From the IMG/VR virus record IMGVR_UViG_3300020419_001305, positions 14,285 through 78,284 of that record: a stretch of 64,000 bases of DNA. One strand, given 5' to 3'. Under the pieces are notes generated by a model. It did not search any database and was not told the origin of the DNA. It saw only the letters and a list, made by a program, of their open reading frames with translations. This DNA is from a virus. The position numbers were made by a program, and so were the translations under genes. How positions within the stretch are numbered: position 1 is the stretch's first letter; every line of letters begins with the position of its first letter. Of the stretch, positions 1 through 64,000 are shown piece after piece.

Positions 1-2
1 TA

Positions 3-434
3 GAAAAAGAACCAGAAGTTATAACAGGTATCGGGGCAGTTAAAGGTACTTTCAAACAAGCAGAAGTAGAAAAACAAAAACAAGAAGAAGTAAAAGATTT
101 AGGTGAAGATATTACTCCCGAACAGATATCTGAAAGATCTTCTCTTGTACAAAAGTATGATCAAGATAGTGTATGGTCTGAAGCGAAAAGAGTATGGAAA
201 TCTAAGCATCCAGATCAAAATATAAAAGATTGGAAACATGCTTATATTTCAGGCAGGATACATGAACTACCATGGCAACAATACTTAGACTATAAAGATC
301 AAGAAGTACAAAAAGCACTTGAAAGTCGTATTAAACCAGATCTCACAGAAGTTATTAATCCAGATGGGTACGAACAAAATGCTGAACAAAGTGAAAAGTC
401 AGTATGGAACAAGATACGTGACAAGGACAAATAA
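3..434 (+). CDS. Hypothetical protein, 5'-truncated by window edge
   Basis: Open frame EKEPEVITG...WNKIRDKDK ending TAA at 432-434; no start in window. Confidence 0.7.
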   Translation, partial: EKEPEVITGIGAVKGTFKQAEVEKQKQEEVKDLGEDITPEQISERSSLVQKYDQDSVWSEAKRVWKSKHPDQNIKDWKHAYISGRIHELPWQQYLDYKDQEVQKALESRIKPDLTEVINPDGYEQNAEQSEKSVWNKIRDKDK

Positions 435-442
435 GTATTAGG

Positions 443-832
443 ATGACTGATACTCTTATTAATTTAATTACATACCCTGACAAACTTTTTAATGATAACA
501 AAAGTATAATTTTGGTTAATCCAAGTGATATGCTAAAAGAGCATTTCAATTTATTAGCCAAAGATTTAAAAAGTCCAATTAACGTATATCTTTATGAAAA
601 CAACGAAACTGAGATAGAATGGCTTCTAGATGTTTGCCAAAATGTAGATAATATTATACTAGATATTGATAATACCAAAATACAACAGTGGGTAATTGGT
701 TACATACTTAATTTTAGCAAAACTTTTTACTTGACAAACCAGGTGGGTATGCCTTATAATATAATTAATTCAAATAGAATATATGAGTTCAAACAATTTA
801 TGGAAGGAGTAAATTATTTTGAGGTACAATAA
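443..832 (+). CDS. Hypothetical protein
   Basis: 129-aa ORF; TAAGTA (432-437) 5 nt before ATG. Confidence 0.7.
   Translation: MTDTLINLITYPDKLFNDNKSIILVNPSDMLKEHFNLLAKDLKSPINVYLYENNETEIEWLLDVCQNVDNIILDIDNTKIQQWVIGYILNFSKTFYLTNQVGMPYNIINSNRIYEFKQFMEGVNYFEVQ
731..760 (+). promoter_or_regulatory. Sigma70-type promoter upstream of rpsU operon
   Basis: TTGACA (731-736) N18 TATAAT (755-760). Confidence 0.7.
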
Positions 833-1085
833 ATTTAATCGAAGGCACGACAAGAATAAAGAAAAAGAAATTGGAAGTGGCATCTACGTAGAAGTTAGAG
901 GTGGCGATGCTACAAAAGCAATTAGGATTTTCAAGAAGAAAGTTCAAGACGCAGGGATTATACAAGAGTATAGAGAAAGACAATACTATGTCAAGCCAAG
1001 CGAAAAGAAAAGAAAAGCCAAACAAGCAGGTAGAAAACGTTGGCTTAAGAAACAAGAAAAAAATTTAGTAGATAGAGGTTTCTAA
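819..1085 (+). CDS. rpsU: Ribosomal protein bS21
   Basis: VEVRGGDATKAIRIFKKKVQDAGIIQEYRERQYYVKPSEKKRKAK matches the S21 pattern; SD AAGGAG, TTG start. Confidence 0.92.
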   Translation: MRYNKFNRRHDKNKEKEIGSGIYVEVRGGDATKAIRIFKKKVQDAGIIQEYRERQYYVKPSEKKRKAKQAGRKRWLKKQEKNLVDRGF

Positions 1086-1661
1086 ATGCCCCTAAAGGCT
1101 GAAGCATGGTTTCCTAGTCTAATCTGGTCTGGGTTGCTAGACAACACACACAACGATAAAATTAAAGATTTTGCTTATGAAAGAAAAAAGCAAGATAAAG
1201 GTGTAGAACTATCTAATTATATAGGGTGGCAAAGCACGTCAATTAGACAAGGTGACGATGACACATTTGATAGACTTGTTGAATCTATAACTTCTAACAT
1301 AGAAGATTGTAGAAATTTAGTTGAACTTCCTGAATTACAACTTTACAATATTTGGATTAATATTAATACTCCTGGAGCATATAACGCCTTACATAATCAT
1401 CCAGGAAGTGTTTTAAGCGGTGTTTACTATGTAGAAAGCACAGAAGAGCAGGGTAACATATTCTTTGAAAGAGGCGATAATGCTGAATATTTTTTACCAC
1501 CTGTACAACAAACTAATTATTTTAACGGAACTGCTACATCCTATAAAGCTATATCAGGTGCTATGTATGTATTTCCTAGTTGGTTAAAACATAGTGTACA
1601 ACCTAATAAAACAGATAAAGATAGAATATCAATATCATTTAACTACGGAGTGAAGAAATGA
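1086..1661 (+). CDS. 2OG-Fe(II) oxygenase-like protein (TIGR02466 type)
   Basis: WININ..HNHPGSVLSGVYY..FPSWLKHSV..RISISFN. Confidence 0.85.
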   Translation: MPLKAEAWFPSLIWSGLLDNTHNDKIKDFAYERKKQDKGVELSNYIGWQSTSIRQGDDDTFDRLVESITSNIEDCRNLVELPELQLYNIWININTPGAYNALHNHPGSVLSGVYYVESTEEQGNIFFERGDNAEYFLPPVQQTNYFNGTATSYKAISGAMYVFPSWLKHSVQPNKTDKDRISISFNYGVKK

Positions 1662-2707
1662 GAATCGAACAGGATATTAAACTAGACTACCAAGATGTGC
1701 TTTTTAAGCCTAAAAGATCTACTTTAACATCTAGGAAAGATGTAGACCTAACAAGAACATTCAAATTTTATAATAGTGGCAAAGAATGGACTGGTGTTCC
1801 TATCATGTCAAGTAACATGGATGGTGTAGGAACATTTTCTATGGCAAAGATTTTACAAGAAAAGAAAATGATCACTGTGTTAAGAAAACATTATACATTA
1901 GATGATTGGAAAACTGCTATAGGTGATGGAGTGAAAATGAAGTACCTAGCTGTCTGTACAGGTACAGGAGTAATATGGGATAAAGATGCTTTGGATTATA
2001 ACACTATGAAACAAGTGTTGGAAAAATATCCAGACATCCCTTTTATTTGTGTAGATGTAGCAAACGGTTATCACGAGAACTACGGTGACTTCATTGAAAA
2101 ACTAAGGTACGAATATCAGGATAAAACTATCATAGCAGGTAATGTTATTACTGGGGAAATGACTGAAGAATTAATCTTAAGAGGAGCCGACGTAGTTAAG
2201 TGTGGAATTGGTCCTGGATCAGTATGTACTACACGATTAATGACAGGTGTTGGAGTTCCGCAACTATCAGGCATCATTGAATGTGCTGATGCGGCCAATG
2301 GCGTTGGAGGACACATTATTGCTGACGGAGGTTGTGTACATCCAGGAGATGTTGCTAAAGCCTTTGGAGCAGGTGCTCACTTTGTAATGCTTGGCGGTAT
2401 GTTAGCAGGACACGATGAGAGCGAAGGTGAAGTAATTAATGGCAAAGTACAATTTTACGGAATGAGTTCAAATGCGGCTATGACGAAGCATGGTTCACGT
2501 AAAGATGGTTACCGTGGAGCAGAAGGCAAGGTGGTTGAACTTCCTTATAAAGGTGCGGTAAACGACACAGTAACAGAAATATTAGGCGGTGTACGTTCCG
2601 CGGCTACATATATTGGTGCTAAACGTATTAAAGACATGCCAAAATGTACTACCTTTGTACGTGTCAATAATGTAGTAAACAAGGTTTATACTCCGTTTGA
2701 AGCATAA
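1658..2707 (+). CDS. guaC: GMP reductase
   Basis: KLDYQDVLFKPKRSTLTSR, DVANGY, GIGPGSVCTTR (catalytic Cys), ADGGC, FYGMSS. Confidence 0.95.
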   Translation: MRIEQDIKLDYQDVLFKPKRSTLTSRKDVDLTRTFKFYNSGKEWTGVPIMSSNMDGVGTFSMAKILQEKKMITVLRKHYTLDDWKTAIGDGVKMKYLAVCTGTGVIWDKDALDYNTMKQVLEKYPDIPFICVDVANGYHENYGDFIEKLRYEYQDKTIIAGNVITGEMTEELILRGADVVKCGIGPGSVCTTRLMTGVGVPQLSGIIECADAANGVGGHIIADGGCVHPGDVAKAFGAGAHFVMLGGMLAGHDESEGEVINGKVQFYGMSSNAAMTKHGSRKDGYRGAEGKVVELPYKGAVNDTVTEILGGVRSAATYIGAKRIKDMPKCTTFVRVNNVVNKVYTPFEA

Positions 2708-2724
2708 AATGGTAAAAAAATCAC

Positions 2725-2772
2725 TTGACTTTTAGCCGTATTATGCTTATATTAATACTAGTATGATAAATA
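2725..2772 (+). promoter_or_regulatory. Tandem sigma70-type and TAAATA late-type promoters for hsp20
   Basis: TTGACT (2725-2730) N17 TATATT (2748-2753); TAAATA at 2767-2772. Confidence 0.6.
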
Positions 2773-2775
2773 CTA

Positions 2776-2862
2776 TTGTTGAAGATATGCCAGGGTTGGG
2801 TATTTTTAACAAGGGCACGAGCCCAAATAACGTTAACTTGCTTATATAAGGAGAAAACAATG
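2776..2862 (+). promoter_or_regulatory. ROSE-like RNA thermometer in hsp20 5'UTR
   Basis: Hairpins 2776-2812 and GGGC-acga-GCCC 2813-2824, then CTTGCTT-atat-AAGGAG (2837-2853) pairing the SD with a bulged G. Confidence 0.7.
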
Positions 2863-4288: not shown

Positions 4289-4289
4289 A

Positions 4290-4973: not shown

Positions 4974-5486
4974 TTATTTAGATATCACAGGATTATTAAG
5001 AGGATTGTCCAAAGCCTTTTGAATCTTGTTGTCTAATTGAGTTTCAAGTTCATCTATCTTCTTATCTATTCTATCAAGTTTACTATCCATTCTTAATTCG
5101 AATGTATTGATAACGCCTCTGACTGTATCAGTGTTAGCCCTGTTTCTTTCGTCTTGTTTGTCCATACTATCGTGTAAGTCACCTACATCGTCTTTCATTT
5201 CTATCTTCATATCGTGTACGTCACTTTTCACATCTCCTAACATTTCCTTAAAGATACCGATTTCTTCTTTCATTAAGATATAATCTTCTTTTAGTATTGC
5301 TAGGTTTTTATCGAATCCACTCATATCAGGAGCCACATAGGCATCTATCTTTTGTTCCATCATAAGATATCTGTTATAAAGTTCAAAGCCTCCCCAAAGT
5401 CCACCGATAATGGTACCTATTAAAGGCAGTATGAGTAACATCTTACTACCGCCTACTTTGATACCTTTGTATTCTATTTCTGCCAT
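4974..5486 (-). CDS. Membrane-anchored coiled-coil hypothetical protein
   Basis: N-terminal TM LLILPLIGTIIGGLWGGF then heptad-rich helix; SD AGGAG; TAAATA upstream on minus strand. Confidence 0.75.
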   Translation of the reverse strand: MAEIEYKGIKVGGSKMLLILPLIGTIIGGLWGGFELYNRYLMMEQKIDAYVAPDMSGFDKNLAILKEDYILMKEEIGIFKEMLGDVKSDVHDMKIEMKDDVGDLHDSMDKQDERNRANTDTVRGVINTFELRMDSKLDRIDKKIDELETQLDNKIQKALDNPLNNPVISK

Positions 5487-5512
5487 TTGTTTCTCCTATT
5501 AAATGTAGTTAT

Positions 5513-7684
5513 TTATTGTAAACCAAGTCCATATCCTGGTTTGTATTGCTCATTAATCATATCGTTCATCAAGTTATCCTGTGCTGAACCAAATAGGGCA
5601 CCGTATGGATCGCCCATCATTACCTGATCTCTATAAACCTGTGTATCAGAGTACCAATCTATTGCGTCTTCATTCTGTTTTTGTACGTATTTCTTAAAAT
5701 TTTCTGTATCTGCTAATGATTGCATCAAAGCAATTTTGGTTGTTTCGTTTATAGCACTATAAGTATCAGCCATAGCACTTAGGATTCTATTAGCAATCTT
5801 CTGTTTAGCCTTAGCTATTTCAGTCTTGATTTTTTCCTTAGTCTGTTTTGTTGTTCCCTTGGACTTAGATTTCTTATCTCCTTTGCTTCCTTTTCCATCT
5901 GTCTTTTGTCCGCCAGTGTCTTCTCTCCCGGCATCATCTCCATCTGCTTCACTAGCAGACTCTGACTCTGTGCTATCTCCGGCTTCTGACTCGCTTTCTG
6001 ATTCACTGGTATCTCCTCTAGAATCAGAATCTCCGTCGGCTTCTGATGAACTGTCGCTGTTATTTTCTTCCACTGACTGTTCAGCATCACTACCGGACTC
6101 TTGTATATCTTCTGAAGCCGATTCATTGCTGTTCGTATCATTTGAACTTTCGGCTTCGGAAACTTCCGCTTCCACACTGGCATTTTCTGTTGCTCCCTCT
6201 TCTACAGTATTTACTTCTACTTCAACTGTAGCTTCTGTAGTAGCTTCAACATTTACATCCATCTCAACGTTTGTTGATCCTGCGTCAGCCATTTCTATAT
6301 TAGTGTCTGGCATATCAATTTCTATTTCTATTTCTCCGACTGCGTCTGCTACTGCTGAATCTATCTGCGAACCAATGTCTGCTTCTATTTCTGCTACCGC
6401 AATTTCTGGTAGTTCTGTTGGGCCTACATCTAAATCAAAGTTTAGATCTATCTCAGCAATGGTTTCTACTTGTACTATACCTGTGTCTAAGTTTGTAGAA
6501 TTCATTTCAACTGTGGCTACATTAGTTGTTTCGTCTACTTCTACACTAAACTCCATTTCTATTCCACCACCTGTGTCGTCATTTACTATAGCTATTTCAA
6601 ATGAATCAACGTCTGTATAATCTATATCAATTACTCCTGTGCTTCCGTCATCTATTGTAGGATCACCTATGAACACACTTGTCAATGTATCTTCGCTTGT
6701 ATTATAAACTGTTTGTTGTGTGCTTAATATTATGTTTGTTATTGTTTCTGTGATAGTTGTTATAGCATCGTATGTAAGTGTCATAAAAGGATCGCTAAAC
6801 ACAGGACCATAATAACCTGAGTGGTATCCCGCATCAACTCCCCACAGTTCCATTTGTCCCCATACCTCAGTGTAACTGTTTGAAGCAATGTCTTGCGTGA
6901 ATGAATGTGTTTGTGTGCCGTTGTAAGTAAGTGTTACAAATTGACTATACTCTCCTATTAGGTTAGTAGCATTTGCTCCTGCCGCCTTGTAAAGTTTTGC
7001 TGTAATTCTAAATACGTCTTTACAGTCGCCGCCGGTTGCTGAACACAAAGGCACAGTAGTATTTGATTTGTGTGATTGTACATCAACACCATAGTTTAAT
7101 TGGAAGCCTGATTGTATTTCTGCAACAGTTAAGTCTAACCCCATTTCAAATTGTTCTGACTGTATTTCGCCGCCACCTAATGCAAGGAAGTTTGAATTTT
7201 GTTCCGTTACAAGATTGTTATTATTATTAGCTTGATAACCTGTACAGGCTTCACCTGCGCCAACAGTTGAACTTGATCCACCTGTTCTACATTGGGTTTG
7301 ACCTTGTAACTTTACTCTACCAGTTGAAGACCAATCCGAATCATTTATTGTAGGCAAACTATTTGTAGTTGTTGTAGACGTTAGTACAGTTGTCTGTTGT
7401 GTTGTAGTGCTTGTTGTAGCAATTTGTTCAATAACTGTTTCTGTATATTGTGTCGTGGTTGTTGTATCTTCAAAGCCACCATTGAGAGCAACTTCTGTGT
7501 TTGTAATCACAGATGTAATTGTGCTAGATGTAACAGTACCGCCGTTAGGTCCGGTATCACCTACATTATATTGTTGTGTGTATGATAGTGCTGGACTAGA
7601 GTAAGAACAACAACAAAGCACCAATACCAATACTCCAAGTAGTTGCCTTATTTTGCCATTCTTTTTCGTATGCTTCAAGATCAT
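5513..7684 (-). CDS. Large secreted/membrane-anchored acidic protein
   Basis: 723 aa; signal-like N-terminus, Thr-rich linkers, Cys-pair domain, long D/E/S tract, basic patch. Confidence 0.8.
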   Translation of the reverse strand: MILKHTKKNGKIRQLLGVLVLVLCCCSYSSPALSYTQQYNVGDTGPNGGTVTSSTITSVITNTEVALNGGFEDTTTTTQYTETVIEQIATTSTTTQQTTVLTSTTTTNSLPTINDSDWSSTGRVKLQGQTQCRTGGSSSTVGAGEACTGYQANNNNNLVTEQNSNFLALGGGEIQSEQFEMGLDLTVAEIQSGFQLNYGVDVQSHKSNTTVPLCSATGGDCKDVFRITAKLYKAAGANATNLIGEYSQFVTLTYNGTQTHSFTQDIASNSYTEVWGQMELWGVDAGYHSGYYGPVFSDPFMTLTYDAITTITETITNIILSTQQTVYNTSEDTLTSVFIGDPTIDDGSTGVIDIDYTDVDSFEIAIVNDDTGGGIEMEFSVEVDETTNVATVEMNSTNLDTGIVQVETIAEIDLNFDLDVGPTELPEIAVAEIEADIGSQIDSAVADAVGEIEIEIDMPDTNIEMADAGSTNVEMDVNVEATTEATVEVEVNTVEEGATENASVEAEVSEAESSNDTNSNESASEDIQESGSDAEQSVEENNSDSSSEADGDSDSRGDTSESESESEAGDSTESESASEADGDDAGREDTGGQKTDGKGSKGDKKSKSKGTTKQTKEKIKTEIAKAKQKIANRILSAMADTYSAINETTKIALMQSLADTENFKKYVQKQNEDAIDWYSDTQVYRDQVMMGDPYGALFGSAQDNLMNDMINEQYKPGYGLGLQ

Positions 7685-8138
7685 TTTCTTTCAACCATTT
7701 CTCATAATCAGGACGCCTCTCAGGATTTTCAGCCCAAGCCTTGGCCGCTTCGATACCAATCTTGCCTTTGTAAGGACAAGGTGTACCTGCCATTTCCATA
7801 GCTTCAAAAACTCTAGCATCTTGACATAGTAAACTGACTGCCGCTACCTTCATTCCCATACCATATAACGATCTGGATAGTTTCAGTCTTTCACAATTTA
7901 GATCTCTTATTGTTGTTCCTCCGGCAATACCTAGTACCTGTGTTTGTACTGCGGCACTGGTTCCTGTGGAACACACATCTTGATTGTTTATCATAACGTT
8001 TGGTGCCGATGCTGTTGGAGGAGTTTTATCAACCGTCGTAGTTCCTGTTACAGTTGATGTCACTGTATTAGTTTCTGCGTGTATGGCCATTGGCCAAAAG
8101 AATACGATAAATGAAATTAGAATAAAATATTTTTTCAC
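7596..8138 (-). CDS. Secreted Cys-containing protein with C-terminal TM anchor
   Basis: Signal peptide ending AIHA, PPTASAP, four Cys (DVC, LNC, LLC, TPC), C-terminal hydrophobic tail. Confidence 0.8.
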   Translation of the reverse strand: MKKYFILISFIVFFWPMAIHAETNTVTSTVTGTTTVDKTPPTASAPNVMINNQDVCSTGTSAAVQTQVLGIAGGTTIRDLNCERLKLSRSLYGMGMKVAAVSLLCQDARVFEAMEMAGTPCPYKGKIGIEAAKAWAENPERRPDYEKWLKENDLEAYEKEWQNKATTWSIGIGALLLFLL

Positions 8139-22591: not shown

Positions 22592-23041
22592 ATGGGAAAA
22601 TACTATTCTACTAAAACTTATGGACACAACATTGGATTGAGTGCTGTATTTAGACAGCCAAATGCTGATCATAGTCATTGTCATTTGTTACATGGATATA
22701 GCTTACAATTTAAATTTACATTTGGTTGTGATAAACTAGATAACAAGAACTGGGCTGTTGACTTTGGTGGCCTAAAGCCTTTGAAGGCTTGGCTAGAAGA
22801 TAACTTCGATCATAAATTATGTTTAGATAATAACGATCCGCACATAGGAAAATTTAAAGAACTTGAAGCATTGGATTTAGCTGAGCTTAGAATGTTTGAT
22901 GGTGTAGGCGCTGAAAAATTTGCCGAACACGCATTTAACTTCGCAGATGAATTAATTAGAAAACATACAAATAATAGATGTTACGTGGTAAAAGTCGAGT
23001 GTGCCGAGCATGGTGCTAATTCTGCTATATATGAGAAATAA
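22592..23041 (+). CDS. queD: 6-carboxytetrahydropterin synthase/PTPS-like (QueD-like)
   Basis: HCHLLHGYS, VDFGGLK, FDHKL, GAEKFA, ECAEH; TTGACA-N17-TATAAT at 22539. Confidence 0.75.
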   Translation: MGKYYSTKTYGHNIGLSAVFRQPNADHSHCHLLHGYSLQFKFTFGCDKLDNKNWAVDFGGLKPLKAWLEDNFDHKLCLDNNDPHIGKFKELEALDLAELRMFDGVGAEKFAEHAFNFADELIRKHTNNRCYVVKVECAEHGANSAIYEK

Positions 23042-23055
23042 GGCATCCATGTACA

Positions 23056-23937
23056 ATGGCAAAAGTAGATAAATCTAAATATACAAAAGAACAATGGAAG
23101 ATCGTTAGAGAGCAGAGGCGAAGGCAAAAAGCACTTGATCGATCTAAAAAGGCACAAAAGGTTTCTGTAGACGCAAAAGATACAGAAAGAACAATTAAAG
23201 TAGCAGTTAATGAGCCGGCCACAGATAACCGTTCAAATTATATCGTTTGTTTAAAACACGGCACAAAGTATGGTCCGGAGTATGTTAATAACCTATACAA
23301 CATGGTTAAAAGGCATTGTACTGTTCCTTTCGAATTTGTTTGCTTTACAGACGACATTAGAAACATTAACCAAGATATAAAAACAATAACACTAAAAGAA
23401 ATAGGTGTAAGTGGATGGTGGTATAAGCCTATCTTCTTTGATAAAAATTTTCCTTTGAATGGCAACATATTATATTTTGATTTAGATGTTGTAGTTCACA
23501 AAAACATAGATAACCTTTTTACATACAATCCAGGAAAGTTTTTAATTTGTAGAGATTTTAATAGAAGTATAAGACATGACTGGAATAGAATGAACAGTAG
23601 TGTATTTAGATTAGTATCCGGTTCATTGCCTCATGTATATGATGACTTTATGGAAAATGCTCCTATGAACATGCGTAGATTTCATGGAGACCAAGATTGG
23701 ATTTATGAAATGTTAAAGGATAGAAAAAGTTTATGGTTGTTTTGGCCTGATGAATGGATCAGAAGTTATAAATGGGAAATGAGAGATCGATCCCATTTAG
23801 ATAGAATTGGCGGCATAAGAAATTTCAAAGTGAAAGCAGAACCATTGGTACACAACTTATGTAATGTAGCAGTCTTTCACGGAGAACCTCACCCTCATCA
23901 GGTTGAAGATGATTGGGTAAAGGAGAATTGGAGATGA
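23056..23937 (+). CDS. Glycosyltransferase (GT-A fold)
   Basis: VCLKHGTKY, FVCFTD, YFDLDVV (DxD), NSSVF, GDQDWI, VFHGEPHPH. Confidence 0.8.
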   Translation: MAKVDKSKYTKEQWKIVREQRRRQKALDRSKKAQKVSVDAKDTERTIKVAVNEPATDNRSNYIVCLKHGTKYGPEYVNNLYNMVKRHCTVPFEFVCFTDDIRNINQDIKTITLKEIGVSGWWYKPIFFDKNFPLNGNILYFDLDVVVHKNIDNLFTYNPGKFLICRDFNRSIRHDWNRMNSSVFRLVSGSLPHVYDDFMENAPMNMRRFHGDQDWIYEMLKDRKSLWLFWPDEWIRSYKWEMRDRSHLDRIGGIRNFKVKAEPLVHNLCNVAVFHGEPHPHQVEDDWVKENWR

Positions 23938-24104
23938 TTAGGATATGGCATTATTGGTGTAAAGCAATGGGTAGTAGAGCTTATGATAATGACCGAAAAG
24001 ACGATCATGTACATAATATAATTAGAACATTTTGGTTCTTATTACACATAGTTACTTGTTGTATGATTATAGCTGGTAACGGAAGGATGTTGAATATATG
24101 GTAG
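23934..24104 (+). CDS. Small membrane protein
   Basis: SD AGGAG/GGAG; WCKAMG motif, one TM. Confidence 0.65.
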   Translation: MIRIWHYWCKAMGSRAYDNDRKDDHVHNIIRTFWFLLHIVTCCMIIAGNGRMLNIW

Positions 24105-24808
24105 ATAAATTTATTTTTGATGTGGACGGAACACTCACACCTAGTAGACGGCAAATAGATGATGACTTTGCCGTTTTCTTTTCAGACTTCTGTGCTGAAA
24201 ATGATGTATATCTTGTTACTGGAAGTGATAGAGAAAAAACAATCGAACAGGTTGGAGAAGAAATATACAGTCTTGCTGATAGAGTTTACAACTGTTCTGG
24301 AAGTGATGTCTGGGAAGGAAATGTAAATGTTTATACAAGCGACTGGCAAATACCAGAAGAAGCAGAAAAATGGCTCAAGGGAGAATGTAGGTGTAGTGAA
24401 TTTCCTCTAAGGACAGGATTACATATTGAGAAAAGACCAGGTATGGTAAATTTCAGTGTTGTTGGTAGGAATGCTACAATGGGAGAACGTCAACTTTATG
24501 TTGAATGGGATACTAAAGAAAATGAACGAATTAAAATAGCTAAAGAATTCCAAAAGTTTTTTCCTGCTATCCAGGCAGTGGTAGGTGGTGATACTGGAAT
24601 TGATATTTTTCCGTATGGAAAAGATAAGGCCCAAATTATAAATGACTTTAATGAATTAGATGATACTTTACACTTTTTTGGAGATAGAATGGATCCTGCT
24701 GGAAATGATTATCCACTTAAGAAAGTAATACTTGACAACGATCTTGGTGTATGCTACAATGTAGAAGGTTGGAAACACACATGGAAGTTATTAAAAAAAC
24801 ATGACTAA
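24098..24808 (+). CDS. HAD-IIB hydrolase, eukaryote-type phosphomannomutase-like
   Basis: FDVDGTLTPSR, VTGSD, IEKRPGMVNFS, GGDTGIDI, DKA, FFGDRMDPAGNDY. Confidence 0.85.
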   Translation: MVDKFIFDVDGTLTPSRRQIDDDFAVFFSDFCAENDVYLVTGSDREKTIEQVGEEIYSLADRVYNCSGSDVWEGNVNVYTSDWQIPEEAEKWLKGECRCSEFPLRTGLHIEKRPGMVNFSVVGRNATMGERQLYVEWDTKENERIKIAKEFQKFFPAIQAVVGGDTGIDIFPYGKDKAQIINDFNELDDTLHFFGDRMDPAGNDYPLKKVILDNDLGVCYNVEGWKHTWKLLKKHD

Positions 24809-25832
24809 ACGTATAGGATTCGCATGTAAATACATGCACGAGAATCAAAACCAAAAAAAGAAAATATTAGAAGAAATACAAAGACCTTTGAATACAAGGT
24901 CAACAACTGTTGCTTGGTTAAATAGACAAACAAAAGAAGTAGCAGAAGAAAGATTATGGGATATTTGTAAACATAATATCCAATCATATTATAACTTGAT
25001 AAAGTATGTAGGAGGATTGCCACATGAGTTACGAATGGTTAGACTTGGTTCCGATGTATTGCCTGTTTATACTGAGCCTACTTGGGGCTATTTCTGGAAG
25101 TTACCTGATGTACGTAAATATTGCGAACAGGCTTTGGCACCAGTCGGTAAGTTGGCTCGCGATCTTGATGTACGCCTTAGTATGCACCCTGGTCAGTTTA
25201 CTGTCCTTGCTAGTGCTAGTGACGATATAGTTGAAAGAAGTATAGAGGAGTTTGAATATCATGTTGATGTCGCCAGATGGATGGGCTTCGGCCAGCAATT
25301 CCAAGATTTTAAGATCAATGTCCACATCTCCGGCCGTAAGGGTCCAGCCGGTATCCTCGACATCCACCCAAGATTATCTCCGGAGGCGAGAAACACAATT
25401 ACAATCGAGAACGACGAAAACTCGTGGGGGCTTGACGCAAGTCTTGAACTTGGACACAAACTCGCTTTGGTCCTCGACATACACCATCACTGGGTCAAAA
25501 CAGGTGAGTATATTAACCCCTCCGACGATAGATTTTCTCGCGTGATAGATAGCTGGCGTGGTGTACGTCCTGTTATACACTATTCTGTTTCTAGAGAAGA
25601 TTATCTTGTAGATTTTGATCCTAATACAAAACCCGTAATGGATACACTATTGCTTGAAGGTTACAAAAAACAAAAACTAAGAGCCCATAGTGATTTTATG
25701 TGGAACAACTCAGTCAATGATTGGGCATTAAGTTTTTGGGAACACGCAGATATTATGGTAGAGAGCAAGGCTAAAAACCTAGCTAGTGAGAAGTTATTTC
25801 AACACTGGATGTCAACCACGCAACACTACTAA
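24801..25832 (+). CDS. uvsE: UV damage endonuclease
   Basis: RIGFAC, VRLSMHPGQFTVL, IENDE, LVLDIHHHW, PVIHYS, RAHSD, DIMVESKAK. Confidence 0.92.
   Translation: MTKRIGFACKYMHENQNQKKKILEEIQRPLNTRSTTVAWLNRQTKEVAEERLWDICKHNIQSYYNLIKYVGGLPHELRMVRLGSDVLPVYTEPTWGYFWKLPDVRKYCEQALAPVGKLARDLDVRLSMHPGQFTVLASASDDIVERSIEEFEYHVDVARWMGFGQQFQDFKINVHISGRKGPAGILDIHPRLSPEARNTITIENDENSWGLDASLELGHKLALVLDIHHHWVKTGEYINPSDDRFSRVIDSWRGVRPVIHYSVSREDYLVDFDPNTKPVMDTLLLEGYKKQKLRAHSDFMWNNSVNDWALSFWEHADIMVESKAKNLASEKLFQHWMSTTQHY
25024..25230 (+). CDS. Candidate overprinted two-TM protein in +1 frame of uvsE
   Basis: AGGAGG (25010-25015) 8 nt before ATG; two long hydrophobic segments. Confidence 0.45.
   Translation: MSYEWLDLVPMYCLFILSLLGAISGSYLMYVNIANRLWHQSVSWLAILMYALVCTLVSLLSLLVLVTI
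25261..25545 (+). CDS. Candidate overprinted Ser/Thr-rich protein in +1 frame of uvsE
   Basis: AGAGGAG (25244-25250) 10 nt before ATG; coincides with a GC-rich patch. Confidence 0.4.
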   Translation: MLMSPDGWASASNSKILRSMSTSPAVRVQPVSSTSTQDYLRRRETQLQSRTTKTRGGLTQVLNLDTNSLWSSTYTITGSKQVSILTPPTIDFLA

Positions 25833-27228: not shown

Positions 27229-30200
27229 ATGGCAAGACAAGATATTTACTTAGGGGTTGAGGGTAACGACGGTACTGGTGATAGTATCCGCGAAGCGTTT
27301 AAAAAAGCTAACGAGAATTTTACAGAACTGTATGCTGTATTCGGGCAAGGCGGTACTATAAGTTTTACAGCTTTAAGTGATTCTCCTTCAGCTATTACAC
27401 CCAACGGAGTTTTAATTGGAAACACAACTGGTACAGAATTAATTGCGAAAACACTTACTGGTGGCACAGGAATATCTATAGATAATACCAGTTTAACAAA
27501 TATTACAATTACAAACACTGGTGCTAATATTAATGCTGATACAAGTCCTATTTTAGGAGGACCTTTAAGTGGTAATGCTGTATATCCTATAGGAAAGATA
27601 AACACATCTGCCGCGGCTATAGCAGAATTTAATTCAACACACGCATCACAAATTACTATTGATGACATTGTTACAGACAAAAAATACCAAGATAAAAATT
27701 ATGCACCACACACTATTACACAATCTAACAAATCTGTATATGCTAGAACAGAGCCAACTGATGATAATGAATACACACAAACAATTACAGAATATAGTTC
27801 AGGTAATGTTGTTATATCGGGTCACGGGTTTGATAACAGCTTCAATGGTACTCAGTGGAAATATTCTACTACAAATACAGCACCAAACGGTTTAACAAAT
27901 AATACAAATTACTTTATTAGATTTGTAAGTGAAAATCAAATTAGTTTACATACAAGTAAAGCAGAAGCACAAAACGATAACGATTTAACTAGAGTAAAAG
28001 TTAATATAGGTTTAGGAACTACAACTGCTGTCACAGGCACAGATGTAATTAAAGACCAAAGCTATAATGAAAGTCTATACGGTAATTACAGAGTAGACGA
28101 AGTAATGCCAAGAAACGCTTCAGTAAGAAGACAAGGCGATGAATTAGCAGGGTCACTTTACCTAGCAGACCATCCAGGATATCTAGCAGGCACTACAGGA
28201 CCAATAGAAGATAGACAAGCGGCAACTAAACTTTATGTTGATAACTCTTCTTATGCTTCTACAGAAGATCTATTTGTTACTAAACAAGGTGACGATACAC
28301 AGGCAAACACTCCAGTAGGATTTGAAGGTAGGGGTTTAAGTTATGCCTATGGTAGTTTAAAAGCGGCGGCCTTAAAGGCACAAGAAATTATGGAGTCAGC
28401 TCCTATTGAACCTGGTGCCTATAGACAAACTATTACATACAACGCAGGTGATAATATATCACTTGTTACACTAGCTGAAACAAAAACAACAAATGCTTTG
28501 GCAAAAAGTGCTATTAAATATTTACAAGGCAGTAAAAAGTTTGTACAGAAATCTGTTGTTGATTATGTAAAAGATAATTTCCCACAACATAGTTTCTTTG
28601 ACACTAATGTTATTAATAAAAATACAGAAAGTTTATTATTTAAAAATAAAAAGTTTATACAAGAAGAAGTAACAGCTTGGATCAACTATCAAATTAATAC
28701 AGGCGCTACAGTAAGTTATAGTGACGGTACAGCTAACTTTACAGGATTTAAATATAGTTCGGCAAAGTGTAAAAGAGATGTAGGCTATATTGTTGATGCT
28801 TGGGAAAATGACTTAGCTAGAGGCGGCAACATTGAAACAAGAAGAATAGCATCAAGCTATCTAGCTGGTGCTGTAAATGCTGTCAATAAAAATACATCTA
28901 ACGCAGGCAATACAGTTAATCAAATAGCACAAACAAATGCCGCACTTGAATTTGCTAGAGATCTTGTTAAAGATTATATTTTAACAGGAACAGCATATCC
29001 GACAAAACAAGGTTACTTCCAAGTTAACGCATCTAACTTAACAGCAAACGCATTTAGATTCTATATAGGTACATCATCATATGCTAATGTATATGTAAAC
29101 GGCGGAGTTGTTACTAAATCAGACGGGACGGCACTTAATGTAAGTAATTTTACCTATGATTATACAACAGGATTTGCTGATGTAACTACTACTACAACAC
29201 ACGGATTGTCCGCAGGTAACACAGTCCAATTAACAGGTGTAAATGTTAATTGTACTTACGATGGTGCTACTACAGAAAAAATATATCCAGAGCTAAACAG
29301 CCAAGCAAATTGTTATAAATTTGTAGTTCAAAATGCTGACTTCTTAGGAAATAGTCCTACAACTAACGGTTTCCAAATATATGTAGGACCTAGTAAATAT
29401 GCTCACACTTATATTAGTGGCGGTACAGCAAAAGGAAACCTAACAGAATTTTCACCAACAGGAGCAACATATAATCCAACAACTGGAGATATGGTAATTA
29501 CTATTGGAAGTCACAGCTTAACAACATCAAACACAATAGAAATAGAACCAAACAGTTTTACATTTACCTGTGCGAAAGATAATAATGCTACTCTTCATTC
29601 TTATCCAAGAAAAGAATCTGTTACATCATCACCAAGCAGTGATCCAGCATATAATACAGCTTTAGCAATTACGGCAGTTGGCGGAACAACAATTACAGTC
29701 AACGTAGGGATATCTTCAGATACAAGTGCACACACTTTTGTAGGTGCTAGAAGAAATGCTGTAAAATATTACACAGCAAACACAAGTATTTCAGGATTTA
29801 ATTACAGTAATACAAACGGGTATGCTACAGTAACAACGTCAAGTGCTCATGGACTAGTCGCAGGTAATAAAGTTGAATTAGCAGACATATATCTATCTTG
29901 TACTGCTCCTACAACAAGTAACACATATTACCCACAACCTATATATGGTGACTATGGAACAGGTAACAGTGACATTCCTACAAGAGCAACAGCATTAACA
30001 GAACTTATAGTTGATGTTATTGCCAACGGATTAGGTAAAGTTCCTGCTCCAGTACAACCGCAAAAATCTAATAACACCTGTGAAAGAGATTTAGGATTAA
30101 TAATCGATGGAATGATTATTGATATAAGGAACGGAACCAACTCTAACTTCAATGCCTTACAAGCGGCTAAGAGATACTTTAGTACACCAAGTGGAGCTAA

Positions 30201-37457: not shown

Positions 37458-39062
37458 ATGAGTGAAAAAGAATATGTTGTTACCTTAAACAAAGGTGTTG
37501 ACTATAGTGAATTTAATCAAGAAATGATTGCTTCGACTGGAGCAGGAGATATTCCGAATAGAACTGTAGACGTTGCTGACCCTAGAGCTTTATCAACAAG
37601 AAACACGCACTATGCTCTTACAGATGCTGAAGCAGTCGCTTTACGCAGTGATAGTAGAGTTACTGATGTACAGCTACGTCCTGAAGATAGAGATGATATT
37701 GAAATTGGATATGATGCTGTTCAAACAGCTAATTTTAATAAGTCATCTTCTGATTCGGGCGATTACAGAGACTGGGGTAAAATAAGACATAGCTTTGTAG
37801 AAAACAAATATGGAACATCAACTTCTTTAAGTTCTAATCCATTTGATAGACCTTATTCAATGGACGGCACTGGTGTTGATATTGTTATACAAGATAGCGG
37901 TCTCCAAGTAGACCATCCTGAATTTAATGATGCCAGCGGAGTATCAAGAGTACAGCTAATTGATTGGTATTCAGAATCAGGAATATCTGGTTCACAAAGT
38001 GTTAACCATTACAGAGACTATGATGGACATGGTACACATTGTGGAGGAACAGCAACTGGATTAAACTTTGGTTGGGCTAATAATTCAAAAGTATATAGTG
38101 TAAAAGTAAGTGGTTTAGAAGGTAGTGGAGATAGTGGCGGTATTAGTACAAGTTTATGCTTTGATGTAATCAAAGGTTGGCATCAAAATAAACCAGTAGA
38201 TCCAAAGACAGGATATAAAAGACCTACTATAGTAAATGCTAGTTGGGGTTACAGCGGAAATATAGGACAAAGTTTTTCTAACATAGAAAGCTACGTCTAT
38301 AGAGGAGTCACTTATAATTCAAGCACAGCTGGTTGGGATAGCACATCAACAGCATATCATAGAGACACATATGGATTTTATCCTTATTATAGATTTCCAG
38401 CTTACAGATATCCATTAAGGATTGCTTCTGTTGATGCTGATGTACAAGATTGTATAGATGCTGGCGTACATATTTGTATAGCCGCAGGTAATAATAGTTT
38501 CAAAGCAGATACTTCTGTAGGACCAGGAGTGGATTACAATAATGTAATTTTTTGGAGTGGTGGTTCAAACAACTTCTATCATAGAGGTAGTTCTCCTTTT
38601 GATGAAGGAGCCAATATGGTAGGTTGTACAGATAGCACTCCTGAAAACGCAACAACAGAAAGAAAGACCAGTTTCAGTACAACAGGACCAGGAGTAAGTA
38701 TTTTTGCCGCTGGTGAAAATATAATGAGCTGTTTCAGTACAACAAATAGATATACTGATGGTGCGTACTTTGGGAATAGTAGTTTTAGAGTAGGAAACAT
38801 AAGCGGAACATCAATGGCATCACCACAGGTATGCGGAGTGGGTGCTTTATATTTACAAGCTGATCCTAGCTTAACTCCAGCTCAATTAAAAAGTAAATTA
38901 GAAAATGATGCCTTGGCAGTCTTGAAAGACGAATCAAATAACGCTAACTACGGTGACACAACAGATATATGTGGTGCTGAAAACAGAATGTTATTTAATA
39001 GATACAATAGAGCTAATCCTTATACCAGTAACATATACGGTATGAGAAAAAAGAATAGGTAA
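37458..39062 (+). CDS. Subtilisin-like S8 serine protease in tail module
   Basis: VIQDSG (Asp), HGTHCGG (His), AAGN, GTSMASPQV (Ser). Confidence 0.9.
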   Translation: MSEKEYVVTLNKGVDYSEFNQEMIASTGAGDIPNRTVDVADPRALSTRNTHYALTDAEAVALRSDSRVTDVQLRPEDRDDIEIGYDAVQTANFNKSSSDSGDYRDWGKIRHSFVENKYGTSTSLSSNPFDRPYSMDGTGVDIVIQDSGLQVDHPEFNDASGVSRVQLIDWYSESGISGSQSVNHYRDYDGHGTHCGGTATGLNFGWANNSKVYSVKVSGLEGSGDSGGISTSLCFDVIKGWHQNKPVDPKTGYKRPTIVNASWGYSGNIGQSFSNIESYVYRGVTYNSSTAGWDSTSTAYHRDTYGFYPYYRFPAYRYPLRIASVDADVQDCIDAGVHICIAAGNNSFKADTSVGPGVDYNNVIFWSGGSNNFYHRGSSPFDEGANMVGCTDSTPENATTERKTSFSTTGPGVSIFAAGENIMSCFSTTNRYTDGAYFGNSSFRVGNISGTSMASPQVCGVGALYLQADPSLTPAQLKSKLENDALAVLKDESNNANYGDTTDICGAENRMLFNRYNRANPYTSNIYGMRKKNR

Positions 39063-42780: not shown

Positions 42781-43530
42781 ATGGCTGGTATTAGCAAATC
42801 TCAAAAACTAGAATTATCAAATATAGCAGTTGAACTAGATTCAGAGGAAGTTGGATTAATAAGGTATGTATTAGAAAGCTACTTTACTATGACATCTGTA
42901 GCTAGATTAGTCAATACGCTAAAATCTTGCAAATACGCTGTACAGAATAATATTCCAGGAGATTTTGTTGAATGCGGTGTTTGGCGTGGAGGTCATGGAA
43001 TACTGGCTAAAAAAATATTTGAACGAATGGGATCAAACAAAAAAGTTTGGATGTTTGATACATTTGAAGGAATGGCAGAACCTACAGAGTTTGATGTAAA
43101 CGCAAGAACAAAAGAGTTAGCAACAGTAAAATATAATGAAACAAAAACCAATACGCATGTTGATTGGTGTTACGCATCTTTAGAAGATGTGAAAAAATGT
43201 TGTGTATCATCAGGTATAGACACAACTAACATAAATTTTATTAAGGGTGATGTTTGCGAAACATTAAAAGACCCAGATAATAGACCAACACAGATATCAG
43301 TGCTTAGATTAGACACTGATTGGTATAAGTCAACTAAGACTGAATTACATTGGTTGTATCCTATTTTAAGTGCTAATGGTGTGTTAATCATTGATGATTA
43401 CGGGCATTGGCAGGGATCGCGTAAAGCAGTAGACGAATATTTTGCCAAAACACAATACAAACCTTTGTTTAACGTGGTAGATTTTACAGGACGTTCAGCA
43501 ATTAAGATAAATAATATGACAGGAGAATAG
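42781..43530 (+). CDS. TylF/MycF/NovP-family O-methyltransferase
   Basis: IPGDFVECGVWRGG, FDTFEG, LRLDTDWY, GVLIIDDYGHWQGSRKAVDEY. Confidence 0.9.
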   Translation: MAGISKSQKLELSNIAVELDSEEVGLIRYVLESYFTMTSVARLVNTLKSCKYAVQNNIPGDFVECGVWRGGHGILAKKIFERMGSNKKVWMFDTFEGMAEPTEFDVNARTKELATVKYNETKTNTHVDWCYASLEDVKKCCVSSGIDTTNINFIKGDVCETLKDPDNRPTQISVLRLDTDWYKSTKTELHWLYPILSANGVLIIDDYGHWQGSRKAVDEYFAKTQYKPLFNVVDFTGRSAIKINNMTGE

Positions 43531-44344: not shown

Positions 44345-44866
44345 ATGCTTATGAAGACAGATAATTTCGGAATACCCAAGTTCACGGGCGAAGATCTAGT
44401 AGATTTGATTTACGAAGGTAAAATCAATAAATGCCACACGGTGTTATGTGAACCTACTGAGGAAGTTGATAAGTTCAACACCTTGGCAGAAGAGTTTGGT
44501 ATTCCTACACTAAAAAAATACAAAGAAGTAGATGTTTCAAAAGAGCAGTTTGATGAGATTTGTCAAAGCGAATGGTTTATGCCTGATTACTACAAACGCA
44601 TAGACGTCGAAAAGTATCTTAAAGACAAATGTACAAATTCAAAAGAAATTGAAAGAGTTGAACAAGAACTAGTAGAGTATGAACAAAGGCAGATGTATAA
44701 TTTGTTAAGGTACATGATCTATCTAGTAGACTTTATGAGAGAAAATCATATTGTTTGGGGTGTAGGCAGAGGATCTAGTGTAGCCAGTTACATACTATAT
44801 TTAATTGGTATACATAAAGTAAATTCAATCCAATATGACCTGGATTACACCGAGTTCTTGAGATAA
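44345..44866 (+). CDS. DNA polymerase III alpha (DnaE)-like fragment
   Basis: RVEQEL..YLVDFMREN.IVWGVGRGSSVASYILYLIGIHKVNSIQYDL..EFLR; TTGACA (44309) N17 TAAAAT. Confidence 0.8.
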   Translation: MLMKTDNFGIPKFTGEDLVDLIYEGKINKCHTVLCEPTEEVDKFNTLAEEFGIPTLKKYKEVDVSKEQFDEICQSEWFMPDYYKRIDVEKYLKDKCTNSKEIERVEQELVEYEQRQMYNLLRYMIYLVDFMRENHIVWGVGRGSSVASYILYLIGIHKVNSIQYDLDYTEFLR

Positions 44867-49278: not shown

Positions 49279-49598
49279 TGAAACTTAGATGTAAACACAT
49301 TCTTTTAAGTCACAAAGACGCAGAAAATACTTCACATCAACGACCCTTAGGTACAGCCGTAACAGATGCTGAAAACATAATTAAAGATTTGAAAACAGGT
49401 AAAATTAAATTTGAAGATGCGGCCGCAGAACATAGTGCCTGTGCTAGTGGACCTAGACATGGCGGAGATCTTGGCTGGTTTGAAGAACATAAAATGCACC
49501 CTGACTTTACAAATGCTGTAAAAGTCATAGGAATAGATACTATAGGTCCACCTGTAATATCACCTTGGGGTGTTCATATTGTATTGAGGACAGGATGA
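49278..49598 (+). CDS. Parvulin-type peptidyl-prolyl isomerase
   Basis: HILL, FEDAA.EHS.C.S..GGDLGWF, SPWGVHIV. Confidence 0.9.
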   Translation: MKLRCKHILLSHKDAENTSHQRPLGTAVTDAENIIKDLKTGKIKFEDAAAEHSACASGPRHGGDLGWFEEHKMHPDFTNAVKVIGIDTIGPPVISPWGVHIVLRTG

Positions 49599-60796: not shown

Positions 60797-61454
60797 TCTT
60801 TTTTACAACAAATACCTTTACAAATTAAGACTTAGAAATCCAATTGGTGCTATTTTTAGAGGAATGAATCTAAGCTATGCTAAACAAAAGCTAGATGAAA
60901 TGCAAAGACAGGCTGAATCTGAATTGCCTATAAAAAGTCCTTTTAGAGTATGGCGTGGTGAAAAAGAAAACATTTCATTAGAAACTTTTATGGATAATTG
61001 TATTATCTTTACGGCATTGGAATCAAATAAAGAAAAAGCATCAGTAAGGTGTGAAGGACAAAAGTTAGATATCTATTCAAACGAATCCAGTTGGTTACTT
61101 AAAATAGCAGAAAAAATAGGTGCCCTTGAATTCCACGAACCTGCTACTGATTCTATTGCTGATTTTTTATCAAACAATGCCATTAATACGGTAGTAACGG
61201 ATAAAGAAAACGATTGGCCATATAAAGCCTTTTTAGCAAAACAAGTAGACCGTAGATTCTCTGACTTTTGTAAACAGAATTCTAAACATATTAAAATAGG
61301 TAGTAAAGCACTAGAAGCCGTTGAAAAACATCAATGGACACAGGGATTTTATTTTAGATGTAAGACAGAAAAGTATTTGATGTTAGCTAAGATAGCGGCA
61401 GGAACCGGAATTACCAAAGTCATCAAATATGTGAGCGAAGACGAATTGGCATAA
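60771..61454 (+). CDS. Hypothetical protein
   Basis: 227-aa ORF; LFYNKYLYKL. Confidence 0.7.
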   Translation: MLQKQKTTSLFYNKYLYKLRLRNPIGAIFRGMNLSYAKQKLDEMQRQAESELPIKSPFRVWRGEKENISLETFMDNCIIFTALESNKEKASVRCEGQKLDIYSNESSWLLKIAEKIGALEFHEPATDSIADFLSNNAINTVVTDKENDWPYKAFLAKQVDRRFSDFCKQNSKHIKIGSKALEAVEKHQWTQGFYFRCKTEKYLMLAKIAAGTGITKVIKYVSEDELA

Positions 61455-61462
61455 ATAGTTGC

Positions 61463-61804
61463 ATGCCGAGTAGTAGTGAAATAATTTTATCAGCAAATAC
61501 ACACCCTGGAGATAGTACGACAGAAACTATCACAGGAAGCAACTTCCGTGGTGACGGTTATTATGGTAGAGCCGATGGTTTACATACAGTACAGTATGAT
61601 TATAACGGTTTAACTGGCACAATTACTATACAAGGAACGTTAGCTACAAATCCAGAATCTACAGACTGGTTCGATGTTACTTCTCTTACTGTATCAACAG
61701 AGACAGCGGTTAAGTATGCGAATTTTACTGGTAACTTTGTTTACATTAGAGCCAAAGTTATATACACAGATGGTACTATAAATAGTATTAGGATGAATCA
61801 TTAA
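61463..61804 (+). CDS. Hypothetical beta-rich protein, probably structural
   Basis: GDGYYG..DGLHTV, IQGTLAT.P...DWF; TAAATA 5 nt before ATG. Confidence 0.7.
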   Translation: MPSSSEIILSANTHPGDSTTETITGSNFRGDGYYGRADGLHTVQYDYNGLTGTITIQGTLATNPESTDWFDVTSLTVSTETAVKYANFTGNFVYIRAKVIYTDGTINSIRMNH

Positions 61805-61813
61805 GGAAGTGCT

Positions 61814-62080
61814 ATGGAAAACTTTATAAACATAGTTTTTGACACAAAGCAGGAAGTAGATGACATAGTTGTCTCTGAAGTAGCAACATCAGCATCAAAT
61901 GCCTTATTAGAAGAAGAAACAGGCTATGAGCTGTACGATACAAATGATGGTAAAACAGTTCTAACAGTTGAAACACATGTTCAACTAGATGAACAAGAGT
62001 CAAACAATGTGGCAGAGAAAATAGCAAATAAATTATTTGATTTAGGATATAACAACTTTGATATTGAAGTGAGTGTTTAA
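61814..62080 (+). CDS. Acidic hypothetical protein
   Basis: SD AAGGA. Confidence 0.65.
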   Translation: MENFINIVFDTKQEVDDIVVSEVATSASNALLEEETGYELYDTNDGKTVLTVETHVQLDEQESNNVAEKIANKLFDLGYNNFDIEVSV

Positions 62081-63138
62081 TGCGTTTCCGTCAATTCAAG
62101 TTAAATGAAAAACGTCCTGTCACAGGTTTAGACAAAGAGCGTTTAAAAAAAATTGATAGAATTACACGACAGCTACAAGGCGATCCTGAATTAGTAGATG
62201 AAATTTTTACACAGATTAGCACAAAAGCAAAAGATATTGAAGGCAATTTTATTAATAGATTTATTGCTATGCTTGCCCCGGAAAATACAAGACCAGAAGC
62301 CGATCAAGCATTTTCAAATTTTTTAAGAAAATATGCTGAAGTTATTTCCGAAGTTGAAAGTACAACAGAAGAAAAATTTGCTTTTATAGGTAATTTAGGA
62401 AAGAAAAGCTACGTAGACTCAGGCAAACTTCTAAAGCCAGGAAAGTCTAGCTGGGACGATTGGTTATCTAATGATGATTTTGCTAGAAAATTATTTGACC
62501 ATGCGTTTGGCGATCCAAGACTTACTACTGACAACAAGGGTCCAGGTGAAGCGGCCCTGGCTATTCTTTCTCCAGAGATAAAATTATCATTGGGTGGAAG
62601 TGGAGACATAGAAGTAAAAAATACACCTGTGGAAGTTAAGGCGGCGGCAGGTAGCAGTACAGGAGCAGGCAGACTTACTCCTACAAAAAATACACTAGGT
62701 ATGTACAATTCTAAACAAGTAGCTAAGATGCTATTTCCGAATGATCAAACAAAACAAGACGCTTTGGTCCAAGGATATCCTAACTGTTCAGCTAACATAT
62801 TTGGTAAATTTGTTGATGACTTCCAACTAGAAACTGCTCAAATACAAAACTTACTAGCAAACATTTTTAAAGAAGAATCCATACAAGATATGATTAGCAA
62901 GGTTGCCGAAAAAGGCAAGAATATTACTGGTAAAGATCTTTTACAATTAAGTATATACAATTACGGAAGATCACAGAATGATGAACATTTCCTAATTCTT
63001 GTGAAATCTACAAGATCTAGCTTATACTTCCAGATTGATAATTGGGATCAACCAGGATTACAGTTTAGTTTAAATATATTTGGCAATGATCTACGTACAG
63101 TAGGACAAACACAAATAGGTATCCTAAAAAGAGCTTAG
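62080..63138 (+). CDS. Hypothetical protein, PD-(D/E)xK-like motif
   Basis: GPGEAALAIL..GDIEVKNTPVEVK; N-terminus MRFRQFKLNE. Confidence 0.65.
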   Translation: MRFRQFKLNEKRPVTGLDKERLKKIDRITRQLQGDPELVDEIFTQISTKAKDIEGNFINRFIAMLAPENTRPEADQAFSNFLRKYAEVISEVESTTEEKFAFIGNLGKKSYVDSGKLLKPGKSSWDDWLSNDDFARKLFDHAFGDPRLTTDNKGPGEAALAILSPEIKLSLGGSGDIEVKNTPVEVKAAAGSSTGAGRLTPTKNTLGMYNSKQVAKMLFPNDQTKQDALVQGYPNCSANIFGKFVDDFQLETAQIQNLLANIFKEESIQDMISKVAEKGKNITGKDLLQLSIYNYGRSQNDEHFLILVKSTRSSLYFQIDNWDQPGLQFSLNIFGNDLRTVGQTQIGILKRA

Positions 63139-63486
63139 ACTAGTTTCTCTATCTAAAAATTTATAATCAATATTCAACGGAGCAAAGGGTTTTAACGAAT
63201 CAAATACCACTTGTTTACTAAGATTGCTACAAGTATAAACATCTAATTGTACTAAAGCAGGAGTACATTCGTCCCAAACGTGTATGACAACGTGGCTTGT
63301 TTCTATTGCTGTAATACAAGTAATGCCTCTATTACCTTCCATATCACAATACTTGGCATAAGGACCAAGCATTATCTTCATTCCAACTGATTCTATTAAT
63401 TGTTTAGTCCACTCTACTATTTGCTGTTCGTTATTAGGTGGATTGTTTACTTCTGCCCTAACTATTAGATGCTTGTGCTGTAACAT
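63124..63486 (-). CDS. speD: Pyruvoyl-dependent S-adenosylmethionine decarboxylase-like proenzyme
   Basis: HKHLIV, IETSHVVIHVW, QLDVYTC; TAAGTA and AGGA upstream on minus strand. Confidence 0.85.
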   Translation of the reverse strand: MLQHKHLIVRAEVNNPPNNEQQIVEWTKQLIESVGMKIMLGPYAKYCDMEGNRGITCITAIETSHVVIHVWDECTPALVQLDVYTCSNLSKQVVFDSLKPFAPLNIDYKFLDRETSLSSF

Positions 63487-63581
63487 AAGCGTGTCCTTTT
63501 TAGGTTTTACTTATCTCAATCTAACTTTTGTATTAGCATATATTGATAAATACTTTATATTACAACATACAAGGTGGTATC

Positions 63582-64000
63582 ATGGGAAAAACATTTAAAG
63601 ATTACTTATTAGAAGTAACAAACGAAAATGCTTTAGATCCAACTCTAGATGATCAAGGCAGATATAACCCACACTGGAATAGACCAAATCCAATGGGAGC
63701 AATAGATAGTGATAAGAAAAAACAAAAAGCACAGGTTAAAAAGAAACCTGTAAAAAAACCCAAAGATACCGCATATGATAAAGCCTGGAAAAAAGCACAA
63801 GACTCAGCCTTTCAAGACTATATGAATAGGCCCATGCCTAGATCACCTAGTGGAAAATATGGTGAAGCAAGTGTGTCGGAAAACATTAAAGTTACAGACA
63901 AAATGCGTGGAGAAATCCAACAGTGGAATGAAAAGTTCAGCAGATATACAGGTATGAACGGAGACGATTTACCAAATGGACTTATCCAAGCAGGATTAAA
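63582..64000 (+). CDS. Hypothetical protein, 3'-truncated (possible internal head protein)
   Basis: MGKTFKDYLLEVTNE...; TAAATA at 63547; frame open to window end. Confidence 0.65.
   Translation, partial: MGKTFKDYLLEVTNENALDPTLDDQGRYNPHWNRPNPMGAIDSDKKKQKAQVKKKPVKKPKDTAYDKAWKKAQDSAFQDYMNRPMPRSPSGKYGEASVSENIKVTDKMRGEIQQWNEKFSRYTGMNGDDLPNGLIQAGL

Follow-up and report, generated by a model that had tools for sequence, protein, structure and literature searches.

That phages avoid restriction sites has been recognised for decades. Among the enzymes relevant here, BbvI is of Type IIS and recognises GCAGC, while the source organisms of the known TseI, ApeKI and BbvI enzymes are thermophiles and Brevibacillus. 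The word GCWGC (i.e., GCAGC or GCTGC) is recognised by TseI and ApeKI, which are of Type IIP (PMC3643589, PMC4926085), and avoidance has been found chiefly for sites of orthodox Type II enzymes and in non-temperate double-stranded DNA phages (PMC6286503). Here we describe the total loss of GCWGC from a stretch of 64,000 nucleotides (referred to as the window), which covers bases 14,285 to 78,284 of the 78,284-base record IMGVR_UViG_3300020419_001305; positions are given in window coordinates unless stated otherwise. This record is a linear IMG/VR fragment of ~22% completeness (CheckV), from which a genome of roughly 350 kb follows, and it is part of an uncultured marine jumbo phage.

Compared with the cases of restriction-site avoidance surveyed by Rusinov et al. 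2018 (PMC6286503), the present one is alike in that a short site of the orthodox Type II kind has been fully eliminated by synonymous means, but differs in that it concerns an uncultured jumbo-phage clade, and in that the site-free state persists over 400 kb of diverged relatives. The recognition words of TseI and ApeKI (Type IIP, G^CWGC) and of BbvI are exactly the set missing here, whereas Fsp4HI-like (GCNGC) and TauI-like (GCSGC) specificities do not fit, with GCSGC being enriched in this DNA (PMC4926085).

Absence of GCWGC and synonymous recoding

The window (1..64000, both strands) is free of GCAGC and GCTGC where 54–70 sites would be expected, and the same holds for the 14,284 record bases upstream. 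Specifically, dinucleotide-preserving shuffles of the window predicted 53.9 ± 6.9 GCWGC sites on both strands, while for the full record a maximal-order Markov estimate predicted 67.8, and 500 within-gene synonymous codon shuffles yielded 69.8 ± 4.8 with a minimum of 57. The latter null retained every protein and the codon usage of each gene (104 genes from crude calls, 94% coding). The total absence from the window that the first-pass annotation had claimed by eye was thus borne out, and the comparison with amino-acid-preserving shuffles placed the count far below the null across the whole record.

The footprint of this absence is most readily seen in alanine codons, of which GCA (39%) and GCT (40%) together make up 79%, with GCG and GCC contributing 9% and 12%, respectively. 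Despite this majority, GCA or GCT never formed the first codon of an Ala-Ala pair, which was GCG in 51 and GCC in 27 of the 78 pairs, so that the codon choice proposed in the first-pass annotation applies to every pair in the record. The four alanine runs it had quoted were all present within one base, and direct reading of the plus strand gave GCC GCG GCT (Ala-Ala-Ala) at 27610..27618, GCG GCG GCC at 28363..28371 (within a gene for a 2627-aa protein that is tail-fibre-like by family match), GCG GCC GCA at 49419..49427, and GCG GCG GCA at 62641..62649.

Removal of GCWGC was synonymous and affected all three reading frames. The codon following NGC was AGC (Ser) or TGC (Cys) in 0 of 28 cases, and between a codon ending in G and one starting with C neither CAG (0 of 15 Gln codons) nor CTG (0 of 45 Leu codons) was found; AGC, TGC, CAG and CTG are all in use in other contexts of the record. 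Mutational input to GCWGC must be high, since 1,527 words in the record are a single substitution away from a site, yet not one site is present. At the protein level, the ratio of Ala-Ala dipeptides to their shuffled expectation was 0.78 where loci are GCWGC-free, versus 1.14 in GCWGC-normal relatives with the same gene neighbourhood, and Ala-Ala is therefore somewhat rarer alongside GCWGC loss, albeit as a mild footprint. Altogether, this DNA has been under long and strong selection, acting at the DNA level against the exact word GCWGC, and has been recoded synonymously.

Specificity of the avoided words and their distribution among relatives

When all 4- to 6-mers were ranked against the codon-shuffle null, two words dominated, i.e., GCWGC (0 vs. 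69.6, z = –14) and TGCA (58 vs. 280, z = –18), followed by weaker depletions of AGCT (0.69), GCGC (0.39), TCGA (0.64), and GCTAGC (0 vs. 7–13). The GCWGC signal has a sharp and exact 5-base specificity, like that of a Type II enzyme, because the twelve one-mismatch neighbours of GCAGC other than GCSGC stayed at 0.92–1.19 of expectation and internal 4-mers were common (CAGC, 372 vs. 441). GCSGC itself, the synonymous substitute of GCWGC, was enriched 2.8-fold (98 vs. 34.8 expected), which excludes the specificities GCNGC and GCSGC. Moreover, a 5′ G or 3′ C would flank 16 of the 70 expected sites, and as these are missing like the rest, there is no hint of a flank-dependent shield. Since GCAGC on either strand constitutes the same set of sites as GCWGC, TseI/ApeKI-like and BbvI-like recognition are inseparable by avoidance.

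Relatives were gathered with a marker, the 534-aa subtilisin-like virion protein encoded at 37458-39062, which yielded 54 loci from marine viral contigs. A close clade of 31 loci from many ocean metagenomes (full-length marker matches being 74–92% identical in amino acids) comprised 400,109 bases without a single GCWGC, against 471 expected. The nearest neighbour, L002, differs from the record in 41% of the codons that specify the same amino acid, and the GCWGC-free state has thus been kept through heavy synonymous turnover. Deeper relatives were patchy, with one 124.7-kb contig at 0 vs. 151 and another at 3 vs. 55, a few retaining 1–3 copies, and others being normal; at least four changes of GCWGC state are required on the marker tree. 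Even sister loci differed, as L032 carries 27 sites (30 expected) and L033 none (20 expected), and all three aligned GCWGC sites of L032 are swapped synonymously in L033. The purged words also varied by lineage: AGCT was reduced to 12 vs. 131 in G426 (L201-L204), in which GCWGC is normal, and other marine viral contigs (L231-L234) lacked both AGCT (0 vs. 34–48) and GCWGC (0 vs. 13–18). Such patchy, lineage-specific purges are the pattern expected of host-specific restriction enzymes.

As a separate observation, TAAATA was depleted in relatives regardless of their restriction-word profile (G422, G415, G428 and G426; loci L186-L204), with observed/expected counts of, e.g., 86/187, 123/172, 75/161 and 106/171, and the related word TAAGTA stood at 52/85 in the record. 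A possible cause is that sequences resembling late promoters are avoided where they would be spurious.

The second word, TGCA, was purged incompletely, with 41 sites left on both strands of the window (1..64000) and 58 in the record, corresponding to a five-fold reduction. Of these survivors, 22 are ATG CAN (Met-His or Met-Gln) and therefore beyond the reach of synonymous change, leaving 36 avoidable sites against about 258 expected. Avoidance of Met-His or Met-Gln at the protein level was not significant in the record (22 vs. 27.4 ± 5.2). Most close-clade members have normal TGCA counts; low TGCA marks a subclade of nine, which contains this phage and also the TGCA-normal L002 (139 sites vs. 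154 expected), and recurs in L019, and the marker tree implies at least three changes of TGCA state. Among 118 TGCA sites in the aligned genes of L002, 69 have been replaced synonymously in the record and only 4 retained. The TGCA purge is hence younger or weaker than that of GCWGC, and independent of it.

A gene for a TylF-like O-methyltransferase (249 aa, 42781-43530, plus strand) forms a clean insertion of ~745 bp between two conserved virion genes and occurs in 6 genomes of one subclade, while 17 relatives without it show a gap of 32–50 bases instead. Although the gene seemed linked to TGCA avoidance inside the clade, three TGCA-poor relatives lack it, and outside the clade 80%-identical copies lie on TGCA-normal contigs, leading us to reject this link.

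Candidate selective agents and hosts

The selective agent is probably a GCWGC-specific endonuclease of the hosts. A Type II restriction enzyme is most likely, resembling either TseI and ApeKI (Type IIP) or BbvI (Type IIS); it would cut phage DNA carrying any GCWGC site at the entry of that DNA, so that every site-creating mutation would be lost. Its cleavage would be directed at unmodified double-stranded DNA, and old sites would have been erased by codon choice, i.e., by GCG or GCC ahead of Ala, by AGT/TCN and TGT after NGC, and, between G and C, by CAA for Gln and any Leu codon but CTG. Host restriction as the selecting force had already been proposed in the first-pass annotation; the strong, sequence-specific selection at the DNA level that it presupposes stood (synonymous, in three frames, on an exact word and clade-wide), while no enzyme could be put to it. 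What we infer from this selection is a restriction enzyme of this kind, a host that carries it, and phage DNA devoid of a protective modification.

Candidate genes for an enzyme or a shield were sought in the phage DNA. About 90 of the 104 open reading frames (ORFs) of the record were compared with at least one of Pfam, PHROGs, NCBIfam and PADLOC, and no restriction endonuclease or DNA methyltransferase family was found among them. Likewise, a six-frame search of the ~22% complete record gave no C5, N4/N6 or D12 methylase and no TGT/DpdA (PF00145, PF01555, PF02086, PF01702), and no C5 methylase was found in the records of 31 relatives, all of which are fragments. A C5 methyltransferase as the alternative strategy of GCWGC-normal relatives was rejected on the same count. 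Because all records are fragments, the absence of methylases and nucleases is weak evidence. That the phage DNA would carry no protective modification at GCWGC, as the first-pass annotation proposed, is a fair presumption.

The main rival explanation is that a GCWGC-specific nuclease with no partner methylase is a product of the phage's own genome; it would attack host or competitor DNA, and the phage would be immune to it through the loss of its own sites. Total rather than partial absence fits such self-immunity, ~78% of the genome is unseen, and many ORFs of the record belong to no family. We nevertheless consider this improbable, since the family comparisons above revealed no restriction endonuclease, no gene of the record tracks the GCWGC-free state among the relatives, and the nuclease-like genes that were found (SNase-like, UvdE and an exonuclease) include none that is site-specific. 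A methyl-dependent enzyme, raised as an option in the first-pass annotation, would be of the BisI family, which cuts GCNGC modified with 5-methylcytosine (PMC4926085); if the phage cytosines were methylated, an enzyme preferring modified GCWGC could select in the same way, and some BisI enzymes from marine-type Rhodobacteraceae genera do prefer, or were assayed on, GCWGC (PMC4926085). The 2.8-fold enrichment of GCSGC, which should otherwise be avoided jointly with GCWGC, speaks against it, as does the lack of C5, N4/N6 or D12 methyltransferases in the record and of C5 enzymes in the 31 relatives' records; requiring two unproven components, it is very unlikely.

It is least likely of all that the absence has no link to cutting and stems from mutation bias, from a codon-pair or translational preference, or from the word being kept back as a rare signal of the phage. 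A reserved signal word could in principle be cleared elsewhere, and the 1–3 copies in a few deeper relatives could be read in this manner, but all three frames are affected, one-mismatch neighbours are not, sister lineages with similar genes and composition have normal counts, and five bases are too few to make a signal unique.

Regarding the hosts of the presumed endonuclease, the record contains a two-piece transfer-messenger RNA (tmRNA) at record bases 5354-5730, upstream of the window, which scored 101 bits on the alphaproteobacterial model RF01849, and tetrapyrrole genes such as those found in the record lie in aquatic phages, one of them with Pelagibacteraceae affinities (PMC11480375). 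Because of this type of tmRNA and these published affinities, an alphaproteobacterial host would be a reasonable, though tentative, assignment. Similarity searches resolved nothing finer than Proteobacteria or Alphaproteobacteria: ClpP is uninformative, being 55–62% identical to many Proteobacteria, and BLAST of the tmRNA against 401 alphaproteobacterial genomes returned only matches of ~20–90 bases and no close counterpart.

Several observations weigh against the reading of a host endonuclease. Neither an endonuclease for GCWGC nor its cognate methylase came to light, nor did a host; no homologue of TseI, ApeKI or BbvI was found in a marine host, nor was one looked for there. Moreover, the record covers only ~22% of the genome, and an enzyme or a modification system carried by the phage may lie in the remainder. 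The 534-aa marker occurs on no contig of 185,579 GTDB species genomes. Two of three phages of Pelagibacter ubique HTCC1062 keep GCWGC, with observed/expected counts of 65/59 in HTVC008M (first 50 kb) and 57/66 in HTVC010P, and the third, HTVC019P, is partly depleted (13 vs. 49). Finally, marine and lake methylome surveys found GCWGC methylation solely in Chloroflexi and not in Alphaproteobacteria (PMC8919816, PMC6329791), whereas the tmRNA is of alphaproteobacterial type; the Chloroflexi in question are metagenome-assembled genomes from a lake (PMC6329791) and from the ocean (PMC8919816). That aquatic bacteria with methylated GCWGC exist at all nevertheless counts in favour of a host endonuclease.

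The SAR116 phage HMO-2011 contains 98 GCWGC sites vs. 145 expected, and neither this phage nor those of HTCC1062 could serve as host proxies, none being GCWGC-free. Most GCWGC copies in HTVC008M bases 1-50000 (L206) are without GG or CC flanks. Each of these cultured phages purges words of its own (GATC, TCGA, CCWGG, CTAAG and others), and word purging is thus ordinary among marine phages. In a sample of ~20 kb from each of 17 small alphaproteobacterial genomes, a single GCWGC-poor genome was encountered (G093, 0.28 of expectation). This genome (L150, L166-L184; ~1.4 Mb, 38–43% GC) is also low in GGCC (0.11), ACGT (0.06), CCGG (0.17), GATC (0.32) and CCWGG (0.24), and such broad palindrome avoidance suggests many restriction systems. 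It was rejected as a host match, since the phage keeps the GGCC, GATC, CCGG and ACGT that G093 avoids. The expectation of the first-pass annotation that GCWGC avoidance would act as a fingerprint of the host was therefore not realised, as neither marker, ClpP and tmRNA, nor the HTCC1062 phages, nor the profile of G093 led to one.

Gene content and meaning of the GCWGC-free state

The closest cultured phages to the record are of the PA5oct type (56% amino acid identity in the clamp loader) and the Atu_ph07 type (46%), and no near DNA match was present among 50,697 phage records. The gene complement includes ribonucleotide reductase, hemC, hemE, a heme-oxygenase-like protein and a bilin reductase, as well as GMP reductase, an ATP-dependent ligase, UvdE, ThyX, PhoH, MazG, Hsp20, DnaJ, a ClpA/B-like ATPase and ClpP. 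It further comprises three 2-oxoglutarate-Fe(II) oxygenases, an RFC-like clamp loader, the 2627-aa tail-fibre-like protein, baseplate-wedge-like proteins and three transfer RNAs. No sign of temperate genes was seen in this ~22% of the genome.

Three further loci in the window stood out. A minus-strand island at 4974-8138, in which GC and AT skew are reversed, holds a 723-aa ORF between ORFs of 170 and 180 aa, and this long ORF matched nothing in Pfam, PHROGs, NCBIfam, PADLOC or the phage records. On the plus strand, at 22592-25832, a PTPS/QueD-like gene adjoins a glycosyltransferase-like gene, a phosphomannomutase-like gene and UvdE; no family of the QueC/QueE/FolE type was found among the scanned ORFs of the record, and the six-frame search of the record gave no TGT/DpdA, so that a 7-deazaguanine pathway is not evident. 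A 173-aa ORF at 44345-44866 (plus strand) matched solely the NTPase domain of bacterial DNA polymerase III alpha (PF07733, E = 1e-11), and could be either a fragment or part of a split polymerase gene.

In the context of restriction-site avoidance at large, this case stands out by its completeness, sharpness and clade-wide persistence, while conceptually it adds little. The absence of GCWGC documents, cleanly and with unusual completeness, how a single selective agent has acted on an abundant clade of uncultured marine jumbo phages. TseI or ApeKI would leave the DNA of this clade uncut and could thus provide a means of enriching it from viral-fraction DNA, and GCWGC-methylated bacteria found by methylome surveys of the same waters would nominate hosts. 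It is a speculative and rather unlikely extension that one GCWGC-specific cutter shapes many unrelated ocean phage lineages, either as a defence common among abundant uncultured hosts or as a phage-carried nuclease rendered harmless by site loss. Were this true, the GCWGC-free state would be the hallmark of a host guild or a weapon that these lineages have in common.

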